Shown here one piece after another: positions 3,768 through 32,912 of a DNA stretch of 64,000 bases. Source of the stretch: Lentisphaerota bacterium (lineage in GTDB: Bacteria > Verrucomicrobiota > Kiritimatiellia > UBA8416 > VGWJ01); contig VGWJ01000007.1 of NCBI GenBank assembly GCA_016873635.1, positions 4,908 to 68,907 on the forward strand, in the 5' to 3' direction. The position numbers and the translations under genes are program-made. The notes below the pieces were generated by a model. That model was not told where the DNA came from. It made no database searches and worked only from the letters and a program-made list of their open reading frames with translations. Numbering within the stretch: position 1 is the first letter of the stretch; every line of letters starts with the position of its first letter.

Positions 3768-4820
3768 TCAGGTGGCTTCCTCCTGCCGTAACGCCTGTGC
3801 CGCTCGGATCATGGCCAGGTAGTTGTCAATCGGGACGTAGTAGGGAATAGAGTTCCCGGAACCCAGGGCATATCCGCGCGCCGACCTCCGGAATCGTCGG
3901 CCCGCTTCACGCACCTTGTCGTAGATGACGTCCGGCGGATTCCCGCACAGGAAATCCATATCAAAACCACCCAACAATCCAATCCTGTCGCCATAATCCG
4001 TGATCCACCGATCGAACGGGGCGATCGCATCCTCATTCGAGTGCTTCGCGTCGATCCCCAGGGCGATCACCTCCTCCATGATCTCGAAAATACACCCGCA
4101 TGAATGCCAGAGGAAACGTCCGCCCGAAGCATGAACCTGGTCGATCACGCGACGATACTGCGGCAGGATGTGCCTGCGAACCGTTGCCGGGTGAGTCAGC
4201 AGCGATGACTTGAAGCCGAGATCGTCCCCAAAGCGGCAGGCGGCAAAGTATGATCCATAGCGCGGCAGGAATTCCTTCCAGATGGCACACATCAGATCGC
4301 CGATGGCCCGGAACACGTCGGCGTAAAGTTCCGGATCATCCGCTTCCATAAACGGGAGGTATTCCAGGCCAACGAGGGCCTCCGCCAGTTCAAACACACC
4401 ATTGCCGATCCCTCCGACCGCCTTCATGCCGGGTGGTAACGACGGCACCAAAGCGCTGAACCGCGGATGGGCTGACCTCCAGAATATGGCTGGAAGTTCC
4501 CGCCAGGGATAACCCTCGAAATCCGAGCGGGATTGAATCGGGCCGCGTCCGCCACAGAGCGCGGTCTCCCCGGGCAGGTGGGAACTGATGCAGACCTCGT
4601 ACGAGACGGTATCGTAGGTCATTTCGCGATGGAAACGGCAGACGTGGCGGAAGAACTCGGCCTGTTCCCCGGCGGCGCCATCAGCCAAATCGGCAAATCG
4701 CACATCCAGGATCTTCTCCATGATCGATGTGCAGACGACGTGCTCGTACAGCGGCAGACGCGCCGGCCGCTCATTCCGCATCACGGCCTCGAAGTTCCGG
4801 TAGTCGGGTTGATGACTCAT
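3768..4820 (-). CDS. uroporphyrinogen decarboxylase (URO-D)/MtaA-like family protein, paralog 1
   Basis: The ORF 3768-4940 is trimmed to the internal ATG at 4820 (MSHQPDYRNFEAVMRNERP...). That start has a GGAG RBS and removes the overlap with the upstream gene. URO-D-like TIM pattern with a WHSCGC motif. Confidence 0.8.
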   Translation of the reverse strand: MSHQPDYRNFEAVMRNERPARLPLYEHVVCTSIMEKILDVRFADLADGAAGEQAEFFRHVCRFHREMTYDTVSYEVCISSHLPGETALCGGRGPIQSRSDFEGYPWRELPAIFWRSAHPRFSALVPSLPPGMKAVGGIGNGVFELAEALVGLEYLPFMEADDPELYADVFRAIGDLMCAIWKEFLPRYGSYFAACRFGDDLGFKSSLLTHPATVRRHILPQYRRVIDQVHASGGRFLWHSCGCIFEIMEEVIALGIDAKHSNEDAIAPFDRWITDYGDRIGLLGGFDMDFLCGNPPDVIYDKVREAGRRFRRSARGYALGSGNSIPYYVPIDNYLAMIRAAQALRQEEAT

Positions 4821-4932
4821 CCTGGTTCTCCTCGTCAATCCTCGAAAAACGCCACCCGGACCAGACAACGCGACACAACCACCTCCAGCACCAGGTTTTC
4901 GCCTTCGTAGCGGTGGCCGTTCACATTCAACT

Positions 4933-7233
4933 TCAAGCATTGCCCATGATCGCCAGCACGTTCACAGTCTTTCCGGGCCGGACGGGCAGCACGCGGCCAG
5001 CCAAGGGCTGGCCGTCCACCCGCACCTCGCGCACGCCGTGTTCGACGCGGTCGGGGTTCTCGACCCGGATCGCATACTCGCAACCCCGGAAGCGGCGGCG
5101 CACGCTGAATCCCGGCCAGGCGGCCGGAATGCACGGGTCAATGATCAGCCCGTCGAAGGTCTTGCGCACGCCCAGAATCCACTCGCTGACCGCCAGCCAG
5201 CTCCAGGCCACGGTGCCCGTGGTCCAGAGGCCGACCGAGCGGCCCGCCAGGTAGGGGTGGCACATGGCGGCGCGGGAGTTCGTGAAGGCGAAGGGAGGGC
5301 AGTCGGCGTTCTCGTTCTGTTGGTCGGCGTCGCCGCCGGGCATGACGGCGCGCAAGGTCCGATAGGCGCGCTCGCCCCGCCCGGCAACGCAATCGGCGAC
5401 GACCTTGAACAGAGCCGCATGGCAGTAGCAGGAACCGTTCTCGAACAGGCCCGAGGGGTTGCCGGTGACCGAGCCCACGCCGCGGTCGACGTCGGTATAG
5501 GCCGGCGCCATGAGATAGGGGCCGACCCGCGAGTCCAGCTCCTCATCAATGGACTTGAGGCAGGCGGCCTTGCGCTCGCCCTCCGCCAATCCGGAGAGGA
5601 CCGCCCAGGATTGCGGATTGAGGTAGATGCGCCCCTCCTTGGCCGTGGCCGTCCCGACAGCGCGGTTATCGTCGTTGTAGGCGAACCGGTACCACTGGCC
5701 GTCCCAGCCGTGCCGGTTCACGGCCTCCTTCACCTCGTCCGCCCGTTGCCGCATCTGCGTGAAGACCTCCGACTTGCCCAGGTGGGCGGCAAGCCGGCCG
5801 GTCTCGTTAAAGGCATGATAAAGGGCGATGGTAAGCCAAACTCCCACTCCCCTGCCCTCCCGGCCCAGGGTCTGGCACATGTCGGCCCAGTCGCCGTCGT
5901 GGATGCGGCACAGTCCGCGCGCGTCGCGGTCGCCGTAGAGGAAGCCCAGGGCGGCCAGCAGGTGCTCCCAGATCGTCGCCTCGCCGCCGTCGTGCCAGGG
6001 GACGACCTCGTCCAGCAGCGCGAGATCGCCGGTCTCGGCTAGATAGGCATTGAGGGCCAGCGGAATCCAGATCGGCCCGTCGGTGTAAAGCTGATCCTGC
6101 AGGGTGTTCACCGCGTCCCAGGCCCGGACGCAGCGGCCGCTCCGGTACACATGTCCCAGTGCCGCCCGGATCTTTTCCCCCGCCTGCTCGGGATCGAGGC
6201 TGCTCGCCCCCATGGCATCCTGCAGGACGTCGCGGAATCCGCGGCTGTAGATGCGGGTCCAGTGGATGTTGAAGCGCAGGTTGTGCTTGGCCCAACTGTT
6301 GAAGAGGCGGTCGAGTTCCGCATCCGGGGTCGTCATCATGAACCGTTCGTTCTGGGCCCGTTCCTCCGGCGTGGTCCCGCGGCGCAACGCCACGGGGCTG
6401 GCAAACATCCGCTCAATCCCTTGGTGGAGTTCAGGAAGTTGGTCGTACGAGCCAAAGACGAAGCGCACCTCGGCCTGCTGGCGGCCGGCCAGACCCACGG
6501 AAGTCTGCAACGCTGCGAGCGTGCCGTAACCGCCATAGGGGGTGTCGGTCAGCGAGCCGCCGTTTCGGAGGCACAGAGGATCGTCCACGCTGCCCTTGCC
6601 GTGCGCGCCATAGAACATCACGGCCGATGCGCTGTAGTGCTCCACTTGCCGGTCGCAGGCCGCGAACCCGTTGAAGAAGGGGAACTCGCATTCAACATCG
6701 ATGTTGATGAACTTGAGGAGATTGCGCCCGCCATCGTATTCGCTGCGGATGCCGGTAATGTGGAACACGGTGGGATAACCGGAGAGATCCATCTGCATGG
6801 CCCCGACCAGATCCAGCCTGCGGTCCTTGCCCGTGGTGTCGGTCAGGCGGACCGTCCAGAGCTCAGCCGGCAGTTCATCGGTCACCGAAATCTGGAGTTC
6901 GATCCGGATGCCCCGCCAGTCGCCGCGCCAGGTCATGTAGCCCTGGCCGAAGACCGCCTCGGCGGAGGCGGTGGGAAAGACCAGTAAATCTTTGCTGGCG
7001 CTGTCCCGCAGGTAAATGCGGCGCGGCCCGCGATTGAGCATGGTGCGGATGCCGCCGACATGACGGAAGAAACTTTGCCCCCCGCCGCCGGAGGTGATCT
7101 GGGCGATGAACCGGTCGTTCCAGAGGCAATTATGCCACTCCCGCGGCTCCAGATCGCGACGGTCAAGGATGAACTCTTCGCCATCTTCGGAGAAGCGGCC
7201 GCATTGGCTGAGTTGATTCGAGTCTTTACGCAT
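4933..7233 (-). CDS. GH94-like glycoside phosphorylase (cellobiose/chitobiose/beta-glucan phosphorylase superfamily)
   Basis: 766-aa ORF with an N-terminal REWHNCLWNDRF..SGGGGQSF. It also has GFRDVLQD, DGDWADMC (equivalent to the catalytic DWND region) and ENGSCYCHAA, all typical of GH94-type phosphorylases. Confidence 0.72.
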   Translation of the reverse strand: MRKDSNQLSQCGRFSEDGEEFILDRRDLEPREWHNCLWNDRFIAQITSGGGGQSFFRHVGGIRTMLNRGPRRIYLRDSASKDLLVFPTASAEAVFGQGYMTWRGDWRGIRIELQISVTDELPAELWTVRLTDTTGKDRRLDLVGAMQMDLSGYPTVFHITGIRSEYDGGRNLLKFINIDVECEFPFFNGFAACDRQVEHYSASAVMFYGAHGKGSVDDPLCLRNGGSLTDTPYGGYGTLAALQTSVGLAGRQQAEVRFVFGSYDQLPELHQGIERMFASPVALRRGTTPEERAQNERFMMTTPDAELDRLFNSWAKHNLRFNIHWTRIYSRGFRDVLQDAMGASSLDPEQAGEKIRAALGHVYRSGRCVRAWDAVNTLQDQLYTDGPIWIPLALNAYLAETGDLALLDEVVPWHDGGEATIWEHLLAALGFLYGDRDARGLCRIHDGDWADMCQTLGREGRGVGVWLTIALYHAFNETGRLAAHLGKSEVFTQMRQRADEVKEAVNRHGWDGQWYRFAYNDDNRAVGTATAKEGRIYLNPQSWAVLSGLAEGERKAACLKSIDEELDSRVGPYLMAPAYTDVDRGVGSVTGNPSGLFENGSCYCHAALFKVVADCVAGRGERAYRTLRAVMPGGDADQQNENADCPPFAFTNSRAAMCHPYLAGRSVGLWTTGTVAWSWLAVSEWILGVRKTFDGLIIDPCIPAAWPGFSVRRRFRGCEYAIRVENPDRVEHGVREVRVDGQPLAGRVLPVRPGKTVNVLAIMGNA

Positions 7234-7269
7234 GCGGCAACTCTCTCTTTTGTCATCTACACCGCACAG

Positions 7270-7481: not shown

Positions 7482-8186
7482 TCACCCCAACAGCGCCGCC
7501 AGGTTTTCGCGCGTCAGCAACGCCGCGTCCTGAGGCCGTTCGAGAAAGGGGCTGACATCCTCGCTGATCGTCCGCAGGTTCAAGGCAGTCAACCACGCCT
7601 GTACCAGTTCCTTCCAGGCGAAGGCGTCGAGACGGACAGTTCCTTGCGTCTGGTCCAGCGCCGCCTGCAACAAAGGCAGGTTCGGGGCCACCGGCGGCCG
7701 TTGCGAGAGATACCACATGAGATCGTACCAGTCCCGCCCCTTGGCATACTTACGGGTGATGACAGCGTGTAGTTTCCCGGCCAGCAGCGAGGGCAAATCG
7801 TAATGCTTCAGCAGGAAGGTCACGTAGCGCGTAACGAGCCGTCGTTCGCAGTGTCCGCCCGGCGGCGGCCGGGTGTCGATTTCCACCTTGATGGCCAGTT
7901 TCTCCGCCGGCATGGCCGATAGACCCGCCTCGCGGAGGACGCCGGCTATGCGAACCCAGCCGGTGTGCACAACCTTACGGTCATTCCAGGTCACCTCCGG
8001 ATCGAACCCGGCGAGCGTCAAGTCCCGCTTCACCTTGGCCATCCATTCCTTGCCCGCATAACTGATAAGAAATCGCTTTTCAGGCGGCGTTGGCACATGC
8101 CCGCCGACGTCGGAATAAATGAGCGCTTTCATGGGGGGCAAGGTAGAAACCTGTTCGAAGAGAACAAGATAACGGGTCGAATGCAC
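7482..8186 (-). pseudogene. AbiEii/AbiGii-type nucleotidyltransferase toxin, N-terminally decayed
   Basis: The 234-aa ORF has a GTG start. Its C-terminal two thirds match the DUF1814/AbiEii pattern (LLAGKLHAVITRKYAKGRDWYDLMWYL). The GG[TS]AL...D.D nucleotidyltransferase motifs are missing; only degenerate traces appear, in different frames, at 8187-8300 (..FVSGDSAFS*, ..VHSTRYLVLF). No AbiEi antitoxin gene is adjacent. Confidence 0.55.
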
Positions 8187-8360: not shown

Positions 8361-11300
8361 TCATTCCGTCTTCACCACCAGTTCCGGATCCTTGAGCAGG
8401 CCGCAGGGCACGAGCTGGTAGCCGTCCAGCCACGTGTCGCCTTCGCGCGTGAATTCGCCCGGCCCGGTCCAGATCGGCCATTTCTCGTTGATATGGAACG
8501 GGCCGTGCGAGTTGCGGCGGCTGCCCACGACCTGGATGACCAGGTGGGCCTCGCCGCCGGAGAGCAGATCCGTGATGTCCACCTCGTTCGGCTCCCAGCC
8601 CACGGTACCCGCCACCTTGCCGTCCACGAGCACGCGCAGCGCCACGCCACGGTATTCCGGCACGCGCACGATGAGCCGCTCCCCCGCCGCCCGTTGCGGC
8701 CGGACGCGCATGCCGTAGCCCACCGAGCCGGAGTAGAAGGCCAGCCCCTGCCCGCACCAGTCGCCGATCGTGAGCGAGGCGGGCGGCGCCGTGACGGACA
8801 CGGCCGTGCCGGCCACCGCGACGCCGAAGGTCCCGAGCAGGTAGACGATCTCCAAGCCCGGGTGGTTCTCGTTGTAGTCGCATTCCAGGATGAGTTCGTT
8901 CGCGCCCGGGCGCAGGAGCGACGGGTCCAGGGGCAACCGGCGCAGGCTCTTGTCCACCCACCAGCCGCCGTCCGTGTCGGAGGAAATCCCGTGCCCGTTG
9001 ACGGCGATGCGGAAGAGGTCCGGCCGCTCCAGGGCCAGGTGCAGGTCGCCGGACACGGCCTCCTGCACCTCGAAGGTGTAGCGCAGGGTGACGTGTGCGG
9101 ACTTTGAGAAAGGCGAGTGTTCGCGTGCCCAGGGCTGTACCATCTCGCCGCCTCGCCGCGGTAATCCCAAGAGGTCGCGCACCGTACCATCCGCGCGCAG
9201 GATGTCGCCGACATCCCGCCAGGCTCCGTCGCCGATTCGCAGGGCGGGCCGATCCAGCACAAGGTTGTTGGCTTCCGAAAGGGAGATCGTCCAGGACTCT
9301 GACCGCAGGGGTTCCGAGCGCACCTCGCGCAGGACGGGCCGGGCTTCGGCCGGCAATTTCAATCCCGCCTTCTTCGGCGCCACAAAGATACGGCTGCCCA
9401 GCACGCCCAGGCTGGTGCGGATGTGCCAGCCGCCGTCCCGGCGCTCGGCATCCGCGGCCAACACCCGACCGCTCGCGGGGTCGAGTTCCACCGGTCGGCC
9501 GGCGCAACCGGCGAATCCACGGATCGTCACCTCCGGGAAGGTCAGGTTCCGATCGCGCGCCATGGGCGGGATCGCCATGAAATCGAAGGTGCGCCCCTCC
9601 TTGGCGGCCAGGAAGTCGAACCCCGTGTTGCACACAAACAGATAGCAGAAGTCCTTGTCCTCGCGCAGCAGGTACAGGGCCGGGGTGATTTCCGCGCCCG
9701 CGCCGTCCAGGATGGAGACGCGGCGGCAGGTCCGCTCCAACTCCGGGCCGGCCACGGAACATTCCGCGTCCGTGCGCGGGCAACCGGCGGCGAAGGCGGC
9801 CACGTCGCCGCTGGGTTCCGCGTCCACGGCCGGCGACGGTTCGCCCGCGAAGACCACGGTGCCGCCCGCGGCCTTGAACTTCTTCAGCAGTTTCAGCGTG
9901 CTGCGCCGCAGGGTGAGGAGTGGCGGCACGAGCACGGCCCGGTACACGCCTTTGGCCAGGCGCAGGACGGGCGCACCGGCTTCGCGGGCGACCTTGCCGT
10001 GGCGGGAAAGCAACTCCTCATCGCCGTAGTCGAAGTCCAGGTGTCTGGCCAGCAGGTGGTCCGTCAGGCGGGCAAAGTTTCGATCCAGAGTTTGGGCGGC
10101 CGGTGCCCAGCGCCAGCCGGTACGGATGGTTGTCCAGATGCTTTCCACGGGATGGATCACCAGCAGGTCGCGGACTTCCCCGCCGCGGGTCATGGCCGCG
10201 TGGACGCGCGCGAAGTAGTCCTCGACCGCCGGGTAGAGTTCCCACCAGGGCGACTGGTGGAGGAGACTGGCTGGAAAGTCACGCTTGGCCTCGCCGAGCA
10301 TGGTGTACCAGGAGAGGTGCTGGCAACGCTGGTTGATGCCGAGCGCGACCTGCCAGTCGCCGACGGCCTTGTGGCCGGCGAAGGGGAAGTCCCAGCCCGT
10401 GCAGCCGTAGGTTTCGGTCAGGCGCCACTTCCAGCCGAACTGCCGCGCCGCGGAACTGACCTGTTTGGCGGTGGCGAACTCGTTCCGGCGTTCGGTCAGG
10501 CTGTCCATGCCCGGGGCCTGCATGTATTCGTAAGTGCGCAGGCAGGAGCCGACCATGTTGGTCTGGCTGGAGGGAGTGGCTTCCTCCAGTTGGTGTCCGG
10601 TGAAGAGTAGTTTGTGCTTGGCGCACCATTCGCCGATCTGGCGGCAGAAAGAGTCCACGTACAGGTGGGTCAGGCAGTCGCCGTAGTGCCAGCGGGTGCG
10701 GGCCGCGTTCGCCCCTTCCACGTCGAAGGCCAGTTCCATCAGGCGCGGCAGGAGGTCGTAGCCGTGGCGCGCCCGGAAGACCCTGGGCAGCGCGCCGGTC
10801 CAGGGCAGCAGGTTCTTCTCCGTACCCCAACGGCCATCCAGAATCCCGCCGTAGCTGGGTTCGTCGCTGAAGATGCCGGGGATGGCTTTGCCGAATTCGT
10901 CGCCGCAATGTTTGCGGTAGGCCTCATGCGTGCGGCGGATGAAGGCGCGCACGGCCGAGTGGGAGAGGGTGTCGAGGTACGCCTGGCCATTGAAGCCGGG
11001 GCTGTCCGGAGCCACCCAGAGACGGAAGCGGACGATACACTCGCCTGGTGCGAGACGCGGCTTTTTTCCACGGGCCAGGGGCCGCACGCCGCGGGCGTTC
11101 GTGCCCTCGATGGCCGCCGCAAACGCGGCGACCGTGTCCGCGGTCCAGCGCAGGTCGCCGGGTTTCTCCAGCAGGTCCACAGCCAGGGCGCGCTGGCGGT
11201 GGCGGCGGTCTTTCGTCACCAACCCGCCGGCCGCGCCCGAGGGCCAGCGGTCCTCGTCGTAGAGCCAGGCTTCCATGTCCTGCTGCTTCGCCTCGTCCAC

Positions 11301-11522
11301 GCAGGCGTCCACGCAAGCGAACCAGTCCTTGCCGAGGTAGGCGGTGTCCAGGCCCACGCGCGAGTGCATGAAGAACCCGCCCAGGCCCATGCGCTTCATC
11401 ACGCGCACCTGCCAGCGGAGTTCGTCCGGCTCCAGCTTCCCGTTCCAGGACCAGAAGGGCTTGCCCCGGAACTCCTTGCCAGGGTTGGCGAAAGCACGAA
11501 AAGGAAATCGATTTATCGGCAT
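8361..11522 (-). CDS. large cytoplasmic glycoside-hydrolase-like protein (TIM-barrel-like N-terminus, jelly-roll C-terminus; possibly GH106-like)
   Basis: 1053-aa ORF with no signal peptide. The N-terminus (GKPFWSWNGKLEPDELRWQVRVMKRMGLGGFFMHSRVGL) is typical of an uncharacterised or rhamnosidase-like GH group. The C-terminus has a galactose-binding-like pattern (RVLVDGKVAGTVGWEPNEVDITDLL). The family assignment is tentative. Confidence 0.6.
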   Translation of the reverse strand: MPINRFPFRAFANPGKEFRGKPFWSWNGKLEPDELRWQVRVMKRMGLGGFFMHSRVGLDTAYLGKDWFACVDACVDEAKQQDMEAWLYDEDRWPSGAAGGLVTKDRRHRQRALAVDLLEKPGDLRWTADTVAAFAAAIEGTNARGVRPLARGKKPRLAPGECIVRFRLWVAPDSPGFNGQAYLDTLSHSAVRAFIRRTHEAYRKHCGDEFGKAIPGIFSDEPSYGGILDGRWGTEKNLLPWTGALPRVFRARHGYDLLPRLMELAFDVEGANAARTRWHYGDCLTHLYVDSFCRQIGEWCAKHKLLFTGHQLEEATPSSQTNMVGSCLRTYEYMQAPGMDSLTERRNEFATAKQVSSAARQFGWKWRLTETYGCTGWDFPFAGHKAVGDWQVALGINQRCQHLSWYTMLGEAKRDFPASLLHQSPWWELYPAVEDYFARVHAAMTRGGEVRDLLVIHPVESIWTTIRTGWRWAPAAQTLDRNFARLTDHLLARHLDFDYGDEELLSRHGKVAREAGAPVLRLAKGVYRAVLVPPLLTLRRSTLKLLKKFKAAGGTVVFAGEPSPAVDAEPSGDVAAFAAGCPRTDAECSVAGPELERTCRRVSILDGAGAEITPALYLLREDKDFCYLFVCNTGFDFLAAKEGRTFDFMAIPPMARDRNLTFPEVTIRGFAGCAGRPVELDPASGRVLAADAERRDGGWHIRTSLGVLGSRIFVAPKKAGLKLPAEARPVLREVRSEPLRSESWTISLSEANNLVLDRPALRIGDGAWRDVGDILRADGTVRDLLGLPRRGGEMVQPWAREHSPFSKSAHVTLRYTFEVQEAVSGDLHLALERPDLFRIAVNGHGISSDTDGGWWVDKSLRRLPLDPSLLRPGANELILECDYNENHPGLEIVYLLGTFGVAVAGTAVSVTAPPASLTIGDWCGQGLAFYSGSVGYGMRVRPQRAAGERLIVRVPEYRGVALRVLVDGKVAGTVGWEPNEVDITDLLSGGEAHLVIQVVGSRRNSHGPFHINEKWPIWTGPGEFTREGDTWLDGYQLVPCGLLKDPELVVKTE

Positions 11523-11549
11523 AGGAACACCTTGCGATCGAACAGCCTC

Positions 11550-12191: not shown

Positions 12192-12202
12192 TGCCCTCTC
12201 CG

Positions 12203-15534: not shown

Positions 15535-15567
15535 AAGTCTCTCTCCATTGGGTCGCGGCCACCCCCA

Positions 15568-18579: not shown

Positions 18580-18624
18580 TCCGTCTCCTGCTTTTGTTTA
18601 TTGCCTGCCCAATCGTGTGCCCGC

Positions 18625-19482: not shown

Positions 19483-19498
19483 TTTGATTCTCCTTCTT

Positions 19499-19570: not shown

Positions 19571-19575
19571 TCCCC

Positions 19576-20838: not shown

Positions 20839-20876
20839 CGTTGGCGTGGTTGTTCCTTTCCTCTTGTCTTTCAAGC

Positions 20877-21662: not shown

Positions 21663-21684
21663 GTTTTCTCCCCAGAGGTTTCCT

Positions 21685-21712
21685 GAAACCTGAAACCTGA
21701 CACCCGACACCT
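21685..21712 (-). promoter_or_regulatory. intercistronic heptad-repeat element (site B)
   Basis: Four tandem heptads, GAAACCT GAAACCT GACACCC GACACCT. They are immediately preceded by AGGTTTC (21677-21683), which can pair with a GAAACCT unit. The element lies between the transaldolase-like stop (21718) and the SDR RBS/ATG (21662). Confidence 0.45.
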
Positions 21713-21717
21713 CATTT

Positions 21718-22386: not shown

Positions 22387-22408
22387 GCCAACCTTCCTTT
22401 CCTCTCCG

Positions 22409-23854: not shown

Positions 23855-23865
23855 CTCCGACTCCT

Positions 23866-25575
23866 TTAGAACAAGTCCTTCGCCAGTTCGCACAGGCGCG
23901 CCGCCACGCGCCGTTCGTAATCCCGCTGGAACGCGCCCGGCAGGGCGTAGAAGCGGTCGCGGTGCAGGAAACGCCCGTTCGGGGCCCGCCGCCCCACGAA
24001 GGCGAAACTATAGTGATGAAACACCTGACCGCGCGCCGACGGCTTCCCGCCTGCCGCCGCATCCGTGCGAAGACAGTCCGCCGCGAACACAGAGCCTGCA
24101 GTCGCTTCCCGCCGCGCGTAGGCTTGCGCATCCTCGCACCATTCCCGGAAGAGCCGCGCATCGTGATCCGCCAACGTATCCGCGAACAGCAATTGCAGCG
24201 ACGGCGAGATCTTGTAGTGCAGCCGGCCGCCGGTCGCGCGGCGGATCGCCTGCCGCACCGGGCGGGAAAGATCGTCGGCGGAATGGACATCGAGCATCAC
24301 GCCGAACCCGTCGGCGATGGCGATCTGTTCCCGCATGCGTTTCTCAAGGCCGTTCAACCCGTCGGGGCAGCGGTAGTCCCAGCCCTTTTCCTGGCCGAAA
24401 TTCGGAGCCACGTACGTTACGGGCAGTCCCCGCCGCCGGATCTCGCGCAGGACAAACAGGAGTTCCTCTGCGGTCGTCAGACAGTCGAACGCGGCCACTT
24501 CCGGCGGATGCTCATCAATCGTGAACTCAAGATCGAACGTTTCGCCGCCTTTGAGCCCGCTGATGCTGTCCGCCAGCTCCGCCAGCGCGTCCAGCGCATC
24601 CCAGTACTTGGCGATCAGCCGCCCGATGGTCCGGTCAGCGAGGACATACCGGTGCTTTCCCATCCGCACCGGTTCCCGGTGGTACGCCAGCACCATCCGC
24701 CGCTCGGCGGCGTTGGACAAGCGGCGTTCGCGCCCGCTGTAGTCCAGCACATCCGCCATGTCGAGCGTGAAGAACGTATAGTAGCGCGCCGCCTGCGCCA
24801 AACGCCGTGCGCGGGCCAACCCGCTTGCGCCGCGCTTGACTTGCAGGTGATCGGCATCGGCGCCATAGCGCAGGGCGTGTTCCGAATGGAGCGCGGCCAG
24901 CACACCGGATACCCAGAGGCCCTCCCAGGTGCTGCCGGTATACCCGGTTTCGATCGTCCCGAAGCCGCAGGCATAATTCTTCGGTGCCGGCCGCCCCGCC
25001 AGAATATCGGCCAGCAGATTCAACTCCCGCACCGAGTTCTGGATCGTGTTCGCCGCAAACCCGCCTCGCCGCATCGCCTCAAACGCGCCGGGCCACAGTA
25101 GCGTGGTCATACGCGAACCAATACCGAGGCGGGGCGTCGCCCCCAGCGCGCGCGGGCGGTTGAGCGGGCGCAGCACCCGGCAATAGCGGTCAAGGATCGC
25201 CGCATCGGTCGGATACGCTGCCACGCGCAAACCGCTCTTCAGCGTCATTTCGCCCAGCGGCTCGCCAAGCGCCGCGCCCCCGCGGCCGAGTTCCACGAAC
25301 ACCTGCTGACCGTCCGGCAGACGAACGAGATCGAAAACCGCCGCGCCGCGCCGGACCCCCGCGCCCGAGCTGGCGCAGTGTTTGGCCCATTGCTCGCCCT
25401 TGCCGCGCACCGCCCGCCACGCAGCGGCACGGTCCCAGGTCGCGGTGTCGAGCACCGCCGGGTTGCGCGCGGCATCGAACGGGAACTGACGTGCCTTTAT
25501 GCTTGGCCATTGGCGGCCGAAGCCGGCCGCCCTCGTTTGTCGCAGCGCGCAATGTGTTCCGTTCGTTCCGCTCAT
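23866..25575 (-). CDS. TIM-barrel sugar-acid epimerase-like protein (tagaturonate/fructuronate epimerase UxaE-like)
   Basis: ~569-aa ORF. ATG 25573-25575 overlaps the upstream TGA by 1 nt. It resembles the UxaE family as I remember it (YGADADHLQVK, YYTFFTLDMADVL, LDVHSADDLS, LHYKISPS). This assignment comes from memory only. Confidence 0.5.
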   Translation of the reverse strand: MSGTNGTHCALRQTRAAGFGRQWPSIKARQFPFDAARNPAVLDTATWDRAAAWRAVRGKGEQWAKHCASSGAGVRRGAAVFDLVRLPDGQQVFVELGRGGAALGEPLGEMTLKSGLRVAAYPTDAAILDRYCRVLRPLNRPRALGATPRLGIGSRMTTLLWPGAFEAMRRGGFAANTIQNSVRELNLLADILAGRPAPKNYACGFGTIETGYTGSTWEGLWVSGVLAALHSEHALRYGADADHLQVKRGASGLARARRLAQAARYYTFFTLDMADVLDYSGRERRLSNAAERRMVLAYHREPVRMGKHRYVLADRTIGRLIAKYWDALDALAELADSISGLKGGETFDLEFTIDEHPPEVAAFDCLTTAEELLFVLREIRRRGLPVTYVAPNFGQEKGWDYRCPDGLNGLEKRMREQIAIADGFGVMLDVHSADDLSRPVRQAIRRATGGRLHYKISPSLQLLFADTLADHDARLFREWCEDAQAYARREATAGSVFAADCLRTDAAAGGKPSARGQVFHHYSFAFVGRRAPNGRFLHRDRFYALPGAFQRDYERRVAARLCELAKDLF

Positions 25576-26549
25576 CACACCAAAACCCCATTCACCACAT
25601 TCACCAGCGGCTCTCCCTTGATGCGGCGGGCCACGGCGTGAGCCACGTCTTCGCGGAGCTTTTTCACCGCCTGCGGCGAGACCGAGGCGATATGGCTGGT
25701 GATGATGACGTTATCCATCTTCAAAAGCGGGCTGTCGGTGTTGATCGGCTCGGGATCGCACACGTCCAGCGCCGCGGCGGAGATGTGCCCGCTCTGGAGC
25801 GCGGCGACCAGGTCCGGCGTCTTGCAGAGCGTGCCGCGCGAGGCGTTCACGAAGATCACGCCCTTCTTCATCTTGGCGATGCTTCCGGCGTTGATCATGT
25901 ACTTCGTCTGCTCGGTGCTCGGGCAGTGAAGGGAGATCAGGTCGCTTTGCGCGTAAAGGCTGTCCAGCGTCACCGGCTCGCAGCCCGCGGCGCGGATTTT
26001 GTCAGCGCTCAGCGCCGGATCGAACCCCACCACGCGGCACTTGAACGGCTTCAGCCGGTTGACCACCTCGCGGCCGATGCGGCCGAGCGCCACGATGCCC
26101 ACCGTCATGTGCTTGAGGGCGTGCAGCGCCGTCAGGGGCACCGGCAGTTTCCACTGGCCGGCCTTGATGACGTTGGCGCAGGGAACGGTCTGCCGCGTCG
26201 CCGCCAGGATCAGCGCCAGCGTGTGGTCCGCCACCTCGTCAATACAGTAGTCCGGCACGTTGCAGACCGGAATGCCCTTGGCGGCGGCGGCCTTGAGGTC
26301 CACGTTGTCCACGCCGATCCCGTAGCGCACGATGATCCGCGCTTTTTTCATGGCCCCGATGACCTTGGCGGTAACCGGCGCGAACTGGGTGATGATGTAG
26401 TCGGCGTCGCCGACTCTCGCCGCGAGGCCGTCCTCGGTCTTGTCGGTGCTGAGCGTCACCTCGGAGCCGAGCGGTTTAAGGATGGATTCCTCGATATCGA
26501 TCGGCGGGGTGGCAAAATCAGTCACCAGTGTTTTCGATACGGTCTGCAT
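25575..26549 (-). CDS. D-isomer-specific 2-hydroxyacid dehydrogenase family protein
   Basis: 324-aa ORF. It has the NAD-binding VGIVALGRIGREV, plus FVNASRG and SHIAS (the catalytic His region). Confidence 0.9.
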   Translation of the reverse strand: MQTVSKTLVTDFATPPIDIEESILKPLGSEVTLSTDKTEDGLAARVGDADYIITQFAPVTAKVIGAMKKARIIVRYGIGVDNVDLKAAAAKGIPVCNVPDYCIDEVADHTLALILAATRQTVPCANVIKAGQWKLPVPLTALHALKHMTVGIVALGRIGREVVNRLKPFKCRVVGFDPALSADKIRAAGCEPVTLDSLYAQSDLISLHCPSTEQTKYMINAGSIAKMKKGVIFVNASRGTLCKTPDLVAALQSGHISAAALDVCDPEPINTDSPLLKMDNVIITSHIASVSPQAVKKLREDVAHAVARRIKGEPLVNVVNGVLV

Positions 26550-26657: not shown

Positions 26658-26659
26658 AC

Positions 26660-27145: not shown

Positions 27146-28276
27146 TTACCAATACCGCCCCATCTCCAATCCGCGTTCGACGAAGAACCGGTACGTGCCG
27201 TACTCGACCAGGTGACTCACGCTGTGGTCAACCTGCAGCACGTAGCCGCCGCCGGCCATGGCGCCCGGCAACTTGGCGGCAAGCTCGCGCTCCACGGCCT
27301 TGAGATCGTTGGTCTCCAGTACCCGCTCGTCCATGCCGCCGATCAGGGCGATCTGGTCGCCGAAGTTCTTCTTGATGCGCAGCAAGTCCATGCCCGCCTT
27401 GATCTCGATCGGCTGCAGACAGTTGATCCCCGCCTCGATGAGCGACGGGATCAGCGCCTCGACAAAGCCGTCGCAGTGCAGCACCACCGGCAACCCGCGG
27501 CTGTGCGCGAAGTCGAAGAGTTTCTTGTGCGCGGGCATGATCAGCTCGCGGTACATGGCCGGCGACATGAACGGCGTGTGCTTGTAGCCGAGATCGTCCC
27601 AGACCCACAGGCCGTCCGGCAGTCCCTCGCGCGCGAAGAGCGTTTCCAGCAGACGCACCGACAGGTCGGCATACAGGCCGGCCATACGGCGCACCCAATC
27701 GGGATCCGCGGCCATGCCCATCAGCAGGTTTTCGTGCCCGCACATGGGCGACATGACGTCGAACGCGCCCATCACACCGCAGGTCATGAACGTCTGGTCG
27801 CGGGCGCACTTCTGCCGCGTTTCACGGTAGACCGCGAAGTTGATCCGCTTCTCATGGGTCCTTTCATCGAGCAGACGCGGCAGGATCTTGTCCTCCCAGT
27901 CCTGCCGCTCTGCAACGCCAAACCCGACGTGTTCCGGTGCACCGGCCCCGTTCTTGATCCAGCGCAGCAACGCTCCATTGCCATCCCGCACCAACTTGGT
28001 GGTTTCCGTTTCCTCGACCACAACATCAGCCGTCTCCACATCGCCCACCAGGTTGATCAGCTTGTAGTTGCCCGGCGTGATCTCGCCGCCGGTACGGCGC
28101 ACGTCCAGCCCGAAGTGGTCGCTGATGTCCTCCGGCCTGGCAAAGTGCCCCTCAGCCGCCCACTTCACGGCCGTTTCCCGCCAGAACACCTCAAATAGCC
28201 CGATCCGATCCACCGGCTGGTGTCTTAGAATCCTGCTCATTAACTCTTTGCTGTTCAAAGCGCTCACCCTTCCCAA
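27146..28276 (-). CDS. URO-D/MtaA-like family protein, paralog 3
   Basis: 376-aa ORF with a URO-D-like pattern (RHQPVDRIGLFE.., LPVVLHCDGFVEALIPSLIEAGINCLQPIE, GGGYVLQVDHS). Confidence 0.8.
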   Translation of the reverse strand: MGRVSALNSKELMSRILRHQPVDRIGLFEVFWRETAVKWAAEGHFARPEDISDHFGLDVRRTGGEITPGNYKLINLVGDVETADVVVEETETTKLVRDGNGALLRWIKNGAGAPEHVGFGVAERQDWEDKILPRLLDERTHEKRINFAVYRETRQKCARDQTFMTCGVMGAFDVMSPMCGHENLLMGMAADPDWVRRMAGLYADLSVRLLETLFAREGLPDGLWVWDDLGYKHTPFMSPAMYRELIMPAHKKLFDFAHSRGLPVVLHCDGFVEALIPSLIEAGINCLQPIEIKAGMDLLRIKKNFGDQIALIGGMDERVLETNDLKAVERELAAKLPGAMAGGGYVLQVDHSVSHLVEYGTYRFFVERGLEMGRYW

Positions 28277-28303: not shown

Positions 28304-29608
28304 TCAACGGGCCGGGGTTTGCGGAATACCCCCGACCGCTTCGATCCGTTGTCGCAGCGCCTCCAGGAACCGCGCCGCGGGCGCGCCGTCCACGAGGCGG
28401 TGGTCGAAGGTCAGGCTCAGCCACAGGCGGTCGCCGGCAACTACCCTGGCACCCTTCACCACAGGCTCCTTCGTGATCCGCCCCACACCGAGCACCGCGC
28501 ACTCCGGCCAGTTGATGATCGGCGTAAAGGCATCAATGCCGGCCATGCCCAGGTTGGTGATTGTGAACGTCCCGCCGCTCATCTCCTCGGCCGCCAGGCG
28601 GCGCGCCCGCGCCCGCTCGGCCAGTTCGCGCGTCAGATCAGCCAGCTTCGGCAGGTCATACTTCGGCGCGTCGCGCACCACCGGCACCACCAGCCCCGCT
28701 TCCGTATCCACCGCGAACCCGATGTTCACGGAATCGGGATGCCGGATGTGGTCGTTCTCCCAGCGGGCGTTGAGCGCCGGATGCTCCAGCAGGGCCTGCG
28801 CCACCTCGCGCATGATGATATCGCCGTAGGCCGGAACCGTTCCTTTCCCCTTGGTCTTTGCCTTGAGTCTTTCGCGCAGCGACACCAGCGCGCCGGCATC
28901 CACCCGTGTCGTCAACGTCACAGGGGCTGTGATGGTCTTGCTGCGGTGCATGCGGTCGGCCACGGTCCGGCGCAGCGTCGAGATCTTCTCGTCGCGTCCG
29001 GGGACCGGCGGGACGGACTGCGCCGCCGCAACGGGCGCCGTCACCGCTGCCGCTCCCCCGCACTGAGTCGCCGCCAGAACATCGCGTTCGCGGATACGTC
29101 CGCCGCGGCCCGTGCCCGGCACCGCTCGCAAATCCACGCCCTCCAGCACGGCACGCCGCGCGGCGCGCGGGGACACGGGCCGAGCGGGGGTAGGCTCTGG
29201 GAGAAACCGCGTGGAACGTAGATCCCCCGCAGGGCCTTCGCTAGTCGAAGGCCGTCTTTGAAGCGGCTCTCCGGTAAGCGGCGGCCCTACATGCCCTCCG
29301 GTCGGCGGCGTAACATCTTTGCCGGCAGCCGGCACAACCGCCTTCCCCGTCGGCGTCGCCTCGCCCGGCGCCACCAGGTAGCCCAGCACATCGGCCACCC
29401 GCACCTTGTCGTCCTTACGGGGCGAGTTGGGCGTCAGGCGCAAAATGCCCTCATCCAGCGATTCGATCTCCTGCACGGCCTTGTCGGTCTCCACCGCGAA
29501 CAACGGCTCGCCGGCCTTCACCGGGTCGCCGTCCTTCTTGAGCCACTCGACGAAGACGGCCTCTTCCATGGACCAACCCTGGCGGGGCAATGTGATTTCA
29601 ATGGCCAT
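28304..29608 (-). CDS. dihydrolipoamide acyltransferase (E2) of a 2-oxoacid/acetoin dehydrogenase complex
   Basis: 434-aa ORF. It has a lipoyl domain with VETDKAV, an E3-binding domain (PRAARRAVLEGVDLRAVPGTGRGGRI) and a catalytic domain with LSLTFDHRLVDGA. Confidence 0.92.
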   Translation of the reverse strand: MAIEITLPRQGWSMEEAVFVEWLKKDGDPVKAGEPLFAVETDKAVQEIESLDEGILRLTPNSPRKDDKVRVADVLGYLVAPGEATPTGKAVVPAAGKDVTPPTGGHVGPPLTGEPLQRRPSTSEGPAGDLRSTRFLPEPTPARPVSPRAARRAVLEGVDLRAVPGTGRGGRIRERDVLAATQCGGAAAVTAPVAAAQSVPPVPGRDEKISTLRRTVADRMHRSKTITAPVTLTTRVDAGALVSLRERLKAKTKGKGTVPAYGDIIMREVAQALLEHPALNARWENDHIRHPDSVNIGFAVDTEAGLVVPVVRDAPKYDLPKLADLTRELAERARARRLAAEEMSGGTFTITNLGMAGIDAFTPIINWPECAVLGVGRITKEPVVKGARVVAGDRLWLSLTFDHRLVDGAPAARFLEALRQRIEAVGGIPQTPAR

Positions 29609-29610
29609 GT

Positions 29611-31620
29611 CTACTCCTCCATCAGTTCCCGCACGGCCTGCGCGATGGCCGCCGCATCGGGCACCAACTGCTTCTCCAGGGGCGGACTGTACGGCACCGG
29701 CGCGAACGCGCCGTGCAGCCGTTTCACCGGCGCGTCCAGATCGTCGAATCCTTCCGAGGCGACGGCCGTCGCGATCTCGCTGGCCACGCTGTAGGGTGCG
29801 AAATCCTCGTCCACAATCAAAAGCCGCCCGGTCTTGCGCACCGACTCCAGCACCGTCGCCGTGTCCAGTGGCGCGAGGGTGCGCGGATCGATCAACTCGA
29901 CGTCAACGCCTTCCGTCGCCAGTGCGTCCGCCGCCTTTTTCGCGTGGTGGACCATCATCGCCAGCGCCACGACGGTCACGTCGCGGCCTTCGCGCACCAC
30001 AGCGGCCTTCCCGAACTCGATCTCGTAATCCGCCTCCGGCACCGGGCATTTGAACCCGATCAACTCCCGGTGTTCCAGGAACAGGACGGGATCGTTGCCC
30101 CGCAGCGCCCGCATGAACAGCCCCTTGGCGTCGTAGGCGTTGGACGGCATGGCCACCTTCAAACCGGGAAAATGCGCGAACAGGGATCCGTAGTTTCCCG
30201 AGTGGTGGGTGGCCGCCGAATGCCCGATGCCGATGCAGCCCCGCAAGAGTACCGGCATGTTCAGCCGCCCGTTGCTCATGTAGCGCATCTTGGCGATCTG
30301 GTTGATGATCTCGCCGACGCCATCCAGCACGAAGTCGGCGAACATGAAGTCGATGACCGGCCGCGCGCCGGCCATGGCCGCGCCGCAGGCGAGCCCCACG
30401 AAACCGCGCTCGCAGATCGGCGTATCGCACAGCCGGTCCGCGCCATACTTCTGGAAGAGCCCGGCCGTCGTGGCGAAGTTGCCGCCGCGCACGCCGATGC
30501 CTTCGCCCATCACGAAGATTCCCGGCTGACGCGCCATTTCCGCGTCCAGCGCTTCCAGCGTGCCGCGGATCACGTTGATCTCGCGCGTGCCGGCCGGCCG
30601 TTCCGGCGCGGGCCCGGGCGGCGTTTCGTCAAACACGTGCTGTGTGGCGGTTGCCTCCGCCGGCCAAGGCTCGGCCTCCGCCGTCTTGAGCGCGGCCGCC
30701 GCCTTTTCGCCGATCTCCTTCTCGATGGCAACCAGTTCAACCTCCGCGGCGACCTTGCCCTGGAGCAGCCGCTTGCGCAGGGCCTGGATCGGACACTTGG
30801 CGCGCCACGCCTCCACCTCCTCGCGGGTGCGGTAGGTGTAGTCGCCCATCCCTTCGGCGTGGGGGCGTGTGCGGTAGGTGCGGCACTCGATCAGCGTCGG
30901 GCCGTTTCCGGAGCGCGCCCGCTCCACGGCCTCCTTCGCCGCAGCCGACACCGCGAGCACGTCGTTGCCGTCCACGGCGATGCCGGGAATGCTGTAGGCG
31001 GCCGCGCGCTCGGCGATCTCGGGATTACCGCCGGAATAGCCGATCGGAATCTCCGTCGCGTATTGGTTGTTCTCGCAGACGAACAGTACCGGCAGTTTCC
31101 AGATGGCGGCCATGTTCAGGCCCTCGTGGAACGCTCCGTTGTTCGACGCTCCATCGCCGAAGAAGGCGACAGCCACCCGTCCATCCTTGAGCACCTTCGC
31201 GGCGTACCCCGCGCCCGCGGCCTGCAGGATGCACGGACCGACAATGCCGGTCGTTCCCATGAGCCCGATTTCCGGCGCGAACAGGTGCATACTGCCGCCG
31301 CGCCCGCTCGAGCAGCCCGTCGCGCGGCCCAGAAGTTCGGCGATCAGCGCGCGCGGTTCCAGCCCCTTGGCCAACGCATGCCCGTGACCGCGATGCGTAC
31401 TGAAAATCGGATCCTGAGGCCGCAGGTGAGCGCAAACACCGGCAGCGACCGCCTCTTCACCAATGTACGTGTGGCACGCTCCGTGAATAAGCCCGCGCTG
31501 GTGCGCCCGCAGCAGTTGCTCCTCCGTCAACCGGATCGTCAGCATGGTCCGGTAAAGGGCGAGCGCCCGCTCACGGTCAACGCCGGCCGCCGCCCCAGGC
31601 TTGTGTTGTTTGGTTGTCAT
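29611..31620 (-). CDS. fused TPP-dependent dehydrogenase E1 component (alpha and beta subunits in one polypeptide)
   Basis: The ORF is trimmed to ATG 31620 (MTTKQHKPG..), which has a GAAGGAAG RBS. The N-terminal half is E1-alpha-like (GACHTYIGEEAV, TPP motif GDGASNNG..NN). The C-terminal half is E1-beta-like (VFVMGEGIG, transketolase C-terminal domain). The stop lies 2 nt before the E2 start. Confidence 0.9.
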   Translation of the reverse strand: MTTKQHKPGAAAGVDRERALALYRTMLTIRLTEEQLLRAHQRGLIHGACHTYIGEEAVAAGVCAHLRPQDPIFSTHRGHGHALAKGLEPRALIAELLGRATGCSSGRGGSMHLFAPEIGLMGTTGIVGPCILQAAGAGYAAKVLKDGRVAVAFFGDGASNNGAFHEGLNMAAIWKLPVLFVCENNQYATEIPIGYSGGNPEIAERAAAYSIPGIAVDGNDVLAVSAAAKEAVERARSGNGPTLIECRTYRTRPHAEGMGDYTYRTREEVEAWRAKCPIQALRKRLLQGKVAAEVELVAIEKEIGEKAAAALKTAEAEPWPAEATATQHVFDETPPGPAPERPAGTREINVIRGTLEALDAEMARQPGIFVMGEGIGVRGGNFATTAGLFQKYGADRLCDTPICERGFVGLACGAAMAGARPVIDFMFADFVLDGVGEIINQIAKMRYMSNGRLNMPVLLRGCIGIGHSAATHHSGNYGSLFAHFPGLKVAMPSNAYDAKGLFMRALRGNDPVLFLEHRELIGFKCPVPEADYEIEFGKAAVVREGRDVTVVALAMMVHHAKKAADALATEGVDVELIDPRTLAPLDTATVLESVRKTGRLLIVDEDFAPYSVASEIATAVASEGFDDLDAPVKRLHGAFAPVPYSPPLEKQLVPDAAAIAQAVRELMEE

Positions 31621-31673
31621 GGCGTCTTCCTTCAGTTCGATCTCTGGCACGGACAAGGCTCAGGCACCGCCTT

Positions 31674-32912
31674 TCATGTCAGCGGATACGTCCCGCATTC
31701 CAAAACGGTGCGGATCATCGCTTCGACGTTCTGAGGCGGCACCCCGTGCTGAAGATTGTGAACGGCGGCAAACACGAATCCGCCGCCCGGCGCGAAGACG
31801 CGCAGCCGTTCCCTGACGTGCGCGGCCACCTCCCGGACCGTGCCGCCGGGCAGTACCCTCTGCGTATCGGCTCCGCCTCCCCAAAACACGATCCGTCCGC
31901 CAAATCGTTCCTTGAGTCTGGCTGGCTCCATGCGCACACAACTGGTTTGCACGGGATTCAGAATATCCACCCCCGCCGCGATGAAATGTTCGATCAGATT
32001 CCAGTTTGAGCCGCAAGAGTGGAACATGGTCTTGGCCCGGCTGTGGCCATGCACATAATCGTTCATGCGCCGGTACCGCGGCAGATAAAGGCGCGCGAAC
32101 GTATCCGGGCTGAACAACTCGCCGTTCTGCGTCCCGAAGTCGGTGCCCGAGATCAGGATCGTGTCGATATGCGGCCCCACGGCCTGGAGATACAGCCGCA
32201 GGTTCTCGATGGTCCGCTCGGCCGTGGCGGCCAGGATGCCGGAGACATAATCCTCGTCCGAGGCCAGGAGGCAGAGCCAGTCGCCGATGGTATGACCGGC
32301 GAAAATGCCGTTGGTGCCCAACCCGCCCTTCAGGAAGCCGCCGTGGACCGAATATTCGGTGTTGTCGTGCAGAAACCGCGCGCGCGTTTCCAGTTTGCGA
32401 AGCTCCTCGTCGGTGTACAAGGGAATGGATCGTTTCCACGCCTCCGGGTCGGTTCGCGGAATATCGCCCGCCGACATCCCGGTCGCGCAGTCGCGATCGA
32501 AGTACAGCGCCGTCGGCGCCATCACCGCCAGCGACACGCCTCGCGCGTCATAAAGGCGCAAGTAGCCCCGCTCGTCCTTGACCGGCCGGAACCCGCCGGG
32601 CATGAGGACGCTCGATCCCACATTCGTTTGCCAGAGTTTCCAATCCTTGTTTTCCAACCCCCACGTCTCCACGGGGTTCTCCAGCTCGATGACGTCGGAG
32701 TGAAACCAGCGCCGCATGTCGTCGTTCAGACGCGCCAGCATCTGAAACTGCTCATAGACTTTCGGCGGTTCGACGTCCAGACCGAGATACCTGCCCAGCG
32801 CAACGCAATGATCCACGTGCACTCCGGTGACCTTCGTGCCGCCGATATCGATCGGCACCCGGTCCGGTTCCTCGTGATTGATCGCCTTGCGTACACGTTC
32901 GCGTGAGTTCAT
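31674..32912 (-). CDS. URO-D/MtaA-like family protein, paralog 4
   Basis: 412-aa ORF with MNSRERVRKAINHEEPDRVPIDIG, FHSCGSNWNLIEHFIAAGVDILNPVQ and FVFAAVHNLQ. Confidence 0.8.
   Translation of the reverse strand: MNSRERVRKAINHEEPDRVPIDIGGTKVTGVHVDHCVALGRYLGLDVEPPKVYEQFQMLARLNDDMRRWFHSDVIELENPVETWGLENKDWKLWQTNVGSSVLMPGGFRPVKDERGYLRLYDARGVSLAVMAPTALYFDRDCATGMSAGDIPRTDPEAWKRSIPLYTDEELRKLETRARFLHDNTEYSVHGGFLKGGLGTNGIFAGHTIGDWLCLLASDEDYVSGILAATAERTIENLRLYLQAVGPHIDTILISGTDFGTQNGELFSPDTFARLYLPRYRRMNDYVHGHSRAKTMFHSCGSNWNLIEHFIAAGVDILNPVQTSCVRMEPARLKERFGGRIVFWGGGADTQRVLPGGTVREVAAHVRERLRVFAPGGGFVFAAVHNLQHGVPPQNVEAMIRTVLECGTYPLT

Follow-up and report, generated by a model that had tools for sequence, protein, structure and literature searches.

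The four URO-D-fold genes

In a stretch of 64,000 nucleotides of a Lentisphaerota bacterium (assembly GCA_016873635.1, contig VGWJ01000007.1, positions 4,908 to 68,907; hereafter the window), we analysed four genes whose products have the fold of uroporphyrinogen decarboxylase (URO-D), together with a short remnant of a further copy. Relatives of three of the four are linked to corrinoid proteins, and we discuss the genes here as candidate corrinoid-dependent methyltransferases placed among genes for glycan and sugar-acid breakdown. The window has 65% G+C and nearly all of its genes lie on the minus strand, including the four genes considered here, all of which are intact open frames.

3768 to 4820, minus strand: URO-D-fold gene 1, 350 aa; WHSCG motif, Asn at the beta-8 position; PF01208 match, E-value 3.1e-12
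12203 to 13291, minus strand: URO-D-fold gene 2, 362 aa; YHLDG motif; no Pfam match
17703 to 17768, minus strand: C-terminal remnant of a gene-3-type copy, 22 codons; found by tblastn with gene 3
27146 to 28240 (start possibly 28276), minus strand: URO-D-fold gene 3, 364 to 376 aa; LHCDG motif with E and DH; PF01208 match, E-value 2.7e-18
31674 to 32912, minus strand: URO-D-fold gene 4, 412 aa; FHSCG motif with Q and xH; PF01208 match, E-value 5.6e-13

An initial annotation of the sequence had placed four URO-D genes and a remnant at these positions, with HSCG in the first and fourth, HCDG in the third and HLDG in the second; the open frames and the tblastn search bear out the positions, and the translations agree exactly with the motifs. 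Start codons were chosen from ribosome-binding sites and third-position G+C (GC3). The likely start of gene 1 is the ATG at 4820, which is preceded by GAGGAG, while an extension upstream to 4940 would have non-coding GC3; for the other genes the likely starts are 13291 (gene 2), 28240 (gene 3, with 28276 possible) and 32912 (gene 4). Against a Pfam cut-off of 23.9 bits, genes 1, 3 and 4 score 46.6, 66.6 and 49.1 bits with PF01208, in alignments restricted to their C-terminal halves, and gene 2 has neither a Pfam nor an NCBIfam match.

Pairwise identity among the four genes is 25–28%, and gene 2 is hardly detectable with the other three. Because identity is only about 25%, the genes represent separate old subfamilies and not recent copies. 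A recent tandem duplication as their origin is ruled out by the same values. The remnant is 77% identical to residues 344–365 of gene 3 over 22 residues (tblastn, E-value 9.7e-6), and it lies in the spacer between an FAH gene and a glycoside hydrolase (GH) family 28-like gene, directly downstream of the former. Its conserved D-H has turned into D-Y, with loss of the His. In two metagenome loci (L098 and L106) FAH and 2-hydroxyacid dehydrogenase genes are found upstream of intact gene-3 orthologues, and therefore an ancestral copy was probably deleted at the remnant site.

Gene neighbourhoods

The following genes, assigned with Pfam, adjoin the URO-D-fold genes.

724 to 3543, minus strand: GH4 gene (724–2598) and GH130 phosphorylase-type gene (2614–3543), downstream of gene 1
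4933 to 7233, minus strand: GH94 phosphorylase-type gene (PF17167, E-value 7e-78), upstream of gene 1
8361 to 12212, minus strand: GH106-like gene (8361–11522) and HAD/beta-phosphoglucomutase-type gene (11550–12212), downstream of gene 2
13294 to 17670, minus strand: GH65 phosphorylase gene (13294–15534) and GH28-like gene (15568–17670), upstream of gene 2
17791 to 26549, minus strand: sugar-acid block of FAH, PEP-mutase/ICL, LarA-like, SDR, FSA/TAL, ALDH, UxaE-like and 2-hydroxyacid dehydrogenase genes
28304 to 31656, minus strand: E2 gene (28304–29608) and fused E1 alpha-beta gene (29611–31656) of a 2-oxoacid/acetoin-type dehydrogenase, between genes 4 and 3

Read along the coding strand, the genes form three runs. 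The first has the order GH94, gene 1, GH130 and GH4, and the second GH28-like, GH65, gene 2, beta-phosphoglucomutase-type HAD and GH106-like. The third begins with gene 4, fused E1, E2, gene 3 and a small open reading frame (ORF), and goes on through the sugar-acid block with 2-hydroxyacid dehydrogenase, UxaE-like, ALDH, FSA/TAL, SDR, LarA-like, PEP-mutase/ICL and FAH. The gap between GH65 and gene 2 is 2 nt, gene 2 and the HAD gene overlap by 10 nt, and the gaps along gene 4, E1, E2 and gene 3 are 17, 2 and 63 nt. Because of these gaps, these URO-D-fold genes are almost certainly co-transcribed with the neighbouring sugar genes. The Pfam assignments thus confirm that each gene adjoins a GH, a phosphorylase or the E1/E2 genes, as first noticed, and the position of the genes in carbohydrate and sugar-acid operons fits the suggestion, made at the same time, that this family was recruited to carbohydrate metabolism. 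The E1 alpha-beta fusion has 681 aa and the E2 protein carries a lipoyl domain; E3 is absent from the window.

Fold and predicted metal site

A profile of the gene 2 family (34 relatives) aligned with that of the gene 3 family in HHalign with a probability of 90% and an E-value of 1.6e-6, with HLDG placed on HCDG. The AlphaFold model of gene 2 (mean predicted local distance difference test score, pLDDT, 94.8) has MtaA (PDB 4ay7) as its best PDB match, with an E-value of 1.6e-7 and a template modelling (TM) score of 0.61–0.64, and HemE structures come next; the TM scores of the top matches are 0.53–0.64. The gene 3 model (pLDDT 87.4) has the same fold as that of gene 2 and matches HemE and MtaA structures with TM scores of 0.62–0.69. 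As modelled, gene 2 is therefore a URO-D-fold protein despite having no Pfam match. PDB searches with single sequences were nearly empty; with the family profile, both MtaA 4ay7 and CdmB (9rui), a methyltransferase I (MT I) enzyme, are matched, the latter with an E-value of 3.9e-14.

Over the 31 URO-D-like copies of the genome, four strand-end positions on successive strands vary together, reading x-D/E-D; [H/D]-x-[C/D]-G; E or Q; and D-H, x-H or N. In the gene 3 family H255, E279, D338 and H339 are invariant. In our reading these positions are the counterparts of the H-x-C / E / C zinc site in the MetE and MtaA groups, and they would form a metal site with harder ligands. The initial annotation had associated HxCG with the zinc-ligand region of MtaA-type enzymes; H-x-C is indeed present in genes 1 and 4, and only in these, genes 2 and 3 having H-x-D with Asp in the place of Cys. 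The full Cys site of MtaA is not found, since at the last strand, where MtaA has Cys as its third zinc ligand, gene 1 has Asn and genes 3 and 4 have His.

Distinction from HemE and relation to MtaA and CmuA

In the sources, genes of this kind carry the automatic name uroporphyrinogen decarboxylase, and HemE structures are among the best fold matches, so that true HemE enzymes, or spare copies of this step of the haem pathway, have to be considered. The window genes resemble HemE in fold and in that annotation, and differ from it in every test of model, motif and context. The best score genome-wide with the HemE model TIGR01464 is 38.9 bits, against a cut-off of 303, and no window gene is listed. 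The Pfam match covers the C-terminal half only. An RQAGR-type N-terminal motif was found by regular expression in none of the 31 genome copies (at the place where HemE 4wsh reads MRQAGRY, the motif is missing from the family consensus), and no haem-pathway gene occurs among the Pfam-scanned ORFs of the window. On the TIGR01464 score and the missing motif we reject HemE identity, which is extremely improbable. Decarboxylation, one of the two roles that had been suggested for these genes, is accordingly unlikely in its HemE form, given that the motif is missing and that the predicted metal site replaces HemE chemistry.

The only NCBIfam models matched are of the MtaA and CmuA types and not hemE, and the genes are thus nearer to the MtaA/CmuA models than to those of HemE. 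The URO-D superfamily includes coenzyme M methyltransferases (PMC10418091). With the MtaA/MtbA/MtsA and MtaA/CmuA subfamily (TIGR01463; PDB 4ay7/4ay8) the window genes share the fold, the best PDB fold match of gene 2 and, in genes 1 and 4, H-x-C-G on the same strand. They are unlike its members in scoring only 22–42 bits against cut-offs of 235–600 (235–400 for TIGR01463 and NF040654), with the C-terminal half alone aligned, and the zinc site H-x-C ... C is not seen in genes 1–4. No bacteria of this kind are known to make coenzyme M.

Corrinoid links of relatives

The gene 2 family profile finds 1015 cluster representatives at an E-value ≤ 1e-30. Gene-2-like domains occur in one protein (P0156) ahead of homocysteine S-methyltransferase and B12-binding_2/B12-binding domains, in a second (P0193) behind Pterin_bind and B12 domains, and in a third (P0158) ahead of B12 domains alone; the last arrangement is the same in three full-length cluster members of 615 aa, each recorded on one contig, with the three contigs differing in length. 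The family motifs are kept in all three proteins. By its domain composition, P0156 is a MetH-like protein in which the gene-2 domain replaces the folate module. Because it takes the place of the methyl-donor module of MetH there, the gene-2 domain is most simply read as a donor-side (MT I) module.

For genes 3 and 4 the link is one of gene order. Of 30 loci in the phylum that encode a small corrinoid protein, 13 have a URO-D-like gene next to it. In one of these genomes (G010) an AraC gene is followed by an MtaA-like gene, the corrinoid protein, a gene-3-like gene (48.7% identity) and the activase gene RACo; in G118 the corrinoid protein stands beside a gene-3-like gene (46%), and in G035 and G080 beside a gene-4-like one (35–37%). 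Overall, the relatives found at corrinoid proteins are 46–49% identical in the gene-3 clade and 35–39% in the gene-4 clade (G035, G080 and G117), and in two genomes a RACo-type activase lies in the same run as corrinoid-adjacent relatives of genes 3 and 4. A 19-kb island of G117, another genome of the phylum (C4:88000–107000), combines 12 URO-D-like genes with genes for a corrinoid protein, a homocysteine S-methyltransferase and a RACo without Fer2 domain, and with a GDSL-type gene. Gene-2-, gene-3- and gene-4-type members are all present in it, as are all the ligand variants seen in the genome studied here. In a quick maximum-likelihood tree genes 2, 3 and 4 each fall in a clade with corrinoid-locus genes (SH-like approximate likelihood ratio test support 99), and gene 1 is unplaced. 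The corrinoid-locus rows of this tree were picked for nearness to corrinoid proteins, so it shows only that each subfamily has members at corrinoid loci.

A further protein (P0268, 1011 aa, from NCBI) begins with a gene-2-like part that breaks off after the HL of HLDG and continues into a GH106-like region. Whether this is a genuine fusion or comes from reading through two adjacent genes, the family stands beside a GH106-like gene, as in the window.

Corrinoid machinery and further copies in the genome

The assembly comprises 3.24 Mb and is 92% complete. PF01208 is matched at 21 places, and an iterative family profile extends these to 31 ORFs, among them arrays of six genes within 11 kb on contig C18 (1–11303) and of four on C64 (952–16218), both with GFO/IDH/MocA-type and other genes in between. 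Gene 3 has a second copy, with 93% identity, at the locus C1:25908–28955, two genes from another URO-D-like paralogue; no other recent duplication was seen in the family. Immediately next to the other copies lie, among others, genes for GH43, GH29, L-fucose isomerase, PL8, sulfatase, xylose-isomerase-like barrels and GFO/IDH/MocA oxidoreductases, and also housekeeping genes.

In the window, neither a corrinoid protein nor RACo was found by tblastn (best E-value 0.58). The lack of a corrinoid partner reported in the initial annotation is thus true of the window and does not extend to the genome: a search of the whole assembly for corrinoid and B12 genes, which had been proposed there, recovered a corrinoid protein, RACo, CobS and CbiB. 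The corrinoid protein is a single MtaC-like one with DLHDIG (C6:37676–38431), beside an AraC regulator. A carbon monoxide dehydrogenase/acetyl-CoA synthase cluster (C35:21197–32453) encodes CooS, AcsB, AcsC, RACo, CooC, AcsD, AcsE and DUF166 and is, judged by its gene content, a complete Wood–Ljungdahl carbonyl-branch cluster in a glycan-degrading genome of the Verrucomicrobiota type. RACo is encoded twice, once inside this acs cluster and once alone on C34. A homocysteine S-methyltransferase gene (S-methyl_trans) lies directly upstream of a Pterin_bind gene (C17:1821–3709) and no fused MetH was found in the genome, so that methionine synthase appears to be split over three genes at two loci, C17 supplying the homocysteine and pterin modules and C6 the corrinoid protein. 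The genome therefore has a carrier, a reductive activase (C34) and methyl acceptor enzymes (C17, and AcsE on C35).

Three genes from the corrinoid protein we also noticed a DUF362/4Fe-4S gene (C6:33960–35126). One gene-2-family protein (P0164, 549 aa) is joined to a DUF362 fragment, which may be a coincidence.

Proposed function

We suggest that genes 1–4 represent four old subfamilies of URO-D-fold methyltransferases that depend on a corrinoid protein, share a distant carrier and probably act on methylated sugars, a proposal to which we give an even chance of being right as a whole. Its parts differ in strength. Genes 2–4 are probably corrinoid-dependent methyltransferases, while for gene 1 the matter is evenly balanced; should the genes be such enzymes, their substrates would on balance be sugars.

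As MT I-type enzymes, the proteins would take a methyl group from the substrate and load it onto Co(I) of a corrinoid protein, a direction of transfer that for genes 1, 3 and 4 is assumed. The partner in trans would be the single MtaC-like protein of C6, kept active by the stand-alone RACo-type activase of C34. From this carrier the methyl group could pass, by way of the methionine-synthase modules encoded separately on C17, to homocysteine or tetrahydrofolate, and further to the Wood–Ljungdahl enzymes (C35). The predicted metal site, on barrel strands 6 to 8 ([H/D]-x-[C/D]-G, E/Q and D-H/x-H), would polarise a heteroatom of the substrate. The most likely substrates, because the genes sit in cytoplasmic glycoside-phosphorylase and sugar-acid operons, are glycan-derived sugars or sugar acids that carry methyl ethers. 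A link with sugars is also suggested by the GH43, GH29, fucose isomerase, PL8 and sulfatase genes near the other copies, by sulfatase, GH38, GH5 and GH42 genes beside gene-2 relatives, and by P0268. Sugar methyl ethers, such as 2-O- and 3-O-methyl deoxyhexoses, 2-O-methyl-xylose, 4-O-methyl-glucuronate and 6-O-methyl-galactose, block ordinary catabolism. O-demethylation of methylated sugars was the other role first suggested for these genes. The fusions, the corrinoid operons and the machinery of the genome argue for a corrinoid-dependent demethylase, and a methylated sugar as its substrate is a conjecture from gene context.

In a wider and more tentative form, for which we see perhaps one chance in three, the genes would belong to an O2-independent, cobamide-dependent network of sugar demethylation, with dozens of substrate-specific URO-D-fold methyltransferases scattered through glycan-utilisation operons and served by one hub corrinoid protein. 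The hub carrier would also be the cobalamin module of the split methionine synthase, and the methyl groups would feed methionine, folate and the Wood–Ljungdahl pathway.

Several observations weigh against this proposal, and they are best considered with the alternatives that they favour. Corrinoid proteins or RACo were found within 8–10 kb at none of 29 metagenome loci of gene-3 orthologues and at none of 32 gene-2-family loci, and within 1.5-kb flanks at none of 19 gene-1 loci apart from one RACo fragment. For gene 1, moreover, none of the close relatives found stands next to a corrinoid protein; a search for longer, fused relatives gave one 684-aa match with PF01208 alone for gene 1, and none for the whole family alignment. 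The genome has one carrier for about 31 candidate methyltransferases, and in relatives the number of small corrinoid proteins stays at 1–3 per genome even where there are up to 33 URO-D-like candidates. In acetogens, unlike in this genome, an O-demethylase operon generally encodes its own carrier. The single carrier may serve methionine synthesis alone, given that no fused MetH was found. Gene-2 relatives are present, for example, in Gemmatimonadaceae and Fimbriimonadaceae, lineages not known as strict anaerobes, and the corrinoid-linked relatives are just 28–49% identical to the window genes, so that specificity, and even chemistry, could differ. A comparison of copy numbers of URO-D-like genes and corrinoid proteins over 151 genomes was uninformative, most B12-binding_2 matches being MetH.

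The lack of a nearby carrier at true orthologues and the imbalance in numbers would be expected if the proteins were corrinoid-independent, metal-dependent TIM-barrel enzymes acting on sugars or sugar acids, as decarboxylases, hydratases/dehydratases or isomerases. One of the genes might then fill the dehydratase step of the sugar-acid route, and the split methionine synthase would be the sole user of the corrinoid protein. The ligands of genes 2 and 3 are of the N/O type (H-x-D, E, D-H), as in metal-dependent lyases and not as in thiol-activating zinc sites. The orthologues of gene 3 are, like a central catabolic enzyme, 72–91% identical across phyla, in sequences named Kiritimatiellia, Thermoguttaceae, Anaerolineae, Caldilineales and Spirochaetia; the nearest named relatives are in a Kiritimatiellia metagenome-assembled genome (MAG) for gene 3 (83%) and in an uncultured Verrucomicrobiota MAG for gene 2 (88%). 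However, the H-x-D/E/D-H and D-x-D/E/D-H variants also occur in the G117 array and next to the corrinoid proteins of G010 and G118, the gene-2 family is found fused to cobalamin-binding domains, and HemE, whose motif is absent, is the only decarboxylase among the characterised members of the superfamily. We therefore regard a corrinoid-independent function as rather unlikely.

A second alternative keeps the corrinoid chemistry and changes the methyl donor. The donors could be methoxylated aromatic aglycones that the adjacent rhamnosidase- or glucosidase-type enzymes release from plant glycosides, or else methylated thiols or other small methyl compounds, and the proximity of GH genes would then reflect glycoside processing or loose clustering. 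All characterised bacterial MT I enzymes of the URO-D fold act on methoxylated aromatics or halomethanes (PMC13222342), and genes 1 and 4 keep the H-x-C used in the thiol chemistry of MtaA. The corrinoid operons that contain clade relatives show no clear sugar genes, which also counts against sugars as substrates: by PDB homologues, the neighbours in G010 and G035 yielded only Sel1 and immunoglobulin-like matches and one carbohydrate-binding-module-like fragment. Furthermore, the GH neighbours of genes 1 and 2 differ between genomes. Two conserved modules were considered and rejected: that of GH65, gene 2 and beta-phosphoglucomutase occurs at just 2 of 32 loci, those of the nearest relative and of one Puniceicoccaceae MAG, and that of GH130, gene 1 and GH94 was not found at 19 loci of the phylum.

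Against such donors, gene 2 is wedged between GH65 and beta-phosphoglucomutase with hardly a nucleotide to spare, no aromatic-ring catabolic genes are seen in the window, and gene-3 orthologues recur with sugar-acid genes over metagenomes: at the 29 loci mentioned above, a gene-4-like paralogue lies beside the orthologue in 17, SDR in 11, 2-hydroxyacid dehydrogenase in 8, E1/E2 in 5, FSA in 5 and UxaE-like in 4. Non-sugar donors thus seem to us an unlikely explanation, and we retain methylated sugars as the proposed substrates.

Comparison with known systems

The MT I enzymes MtvB, OdmB, VdmB, MtoB and CdmB form an established URO-D-fold group with many paralogues whose substrates are still to be assigned (PMC13222342). 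The window genes resemble these three-component systems in their URO-D-type TIM barrel, in the many paralogues per genome, in having clade relatives encoded with a corrinoid protein and a RACo/AE-type activase, and in the presence of a methyl sink (tetrahydrofolate and the Wood–Ljungdahl pathway) in the genome. In contrast, the window genes have no corrinoid protein, activase or MT II in cis, are embedded in glycoside-phosphorylase and sugar-acid operons, number about 31 in the genome against one carrier, and often have an N/O-type ligand set; the known substrates of the established systems are methoxylated aromatics and halomethanes, not sugars.

The fused relatives of gene 2 have parallels in CmuA, which combines a methyltransferase with B12 domains, and in MetH, where a donor and a homocysteine module are joined to B12 domains. 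Gene 2 itself stands alone, and its donor module is neither of the CmuA type nor the pterin-binding module of MetH. For a shared carrier, a roseobacter glycine-betaine system offers a parallel, in which a split methionine synthase is reported to share its corrinoid protein with another methyltransferase (PMC12478193). The present genome likewise encodes its homocysteine and pterin modules separately, with a single small corrinoid protein and without a fused MetH, and a shared carrier would therefore have a precedent. The additional donor enzyme described there is an MttB-family protein acting on glycine betaine, whereas here dozens of URO-D-fold proteins would be involved.

The sole route of sugar O-demethylation that we found in the literature is that of 6-O-methyl-D-galactose by a cytochrome P450, which is oxygen-dependent (PMC6292453). 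As in the route proposed here, a methyl ether that blocks sugar catabolism is removed and the gene lies inside a glycan-utilisation locus; unlike it, the P450 has an unrelated fold, requires oxygen and releases formaldehyde, whereas the proposed route would be oxygen-free and conserve the methyl group. Our literature search found no corrinoid-dependent sugar demethylation, nothing linking URO-D-family proteins to polysaccharide loci and nothing linking corrinoids to methylated sugars, in line with the remark in the initial annotation that no function of this kind is established.

If the proposal is correct, it would account for the way in which anaerobic degraders of glycans deal with methylated polysaccharides, and would assign a role to thousands of genes that now bear the name uroporphyrinogen decarboxylase, including the gene 2 family that lacks a Pfam match. 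It would also tie glycan breakdown to methionine, C1 metabolism and the demand for vitamin B12. The fused forms, in which a gene-2-like domain is joined to B12 domains, are directly testable constructs.

Other features of the window

The GH4 protein (724–2598) has an N-terminal extension of about 190 residues, its Pfam match starting at residue 191. An AbiEii-type nucleotidyltransferase toxin gene (7482–8186) stands alone between the GH94 and GH106-like genes, with the largest gaps of the region around it. Farther along, between 40132 and 57423, six co-directional genes encode proteins with FGE-sulfatase (SUMF1-like) domains, four of them with two matched stretches each, and a gene with a glycine-rich domain is interspersed among them.

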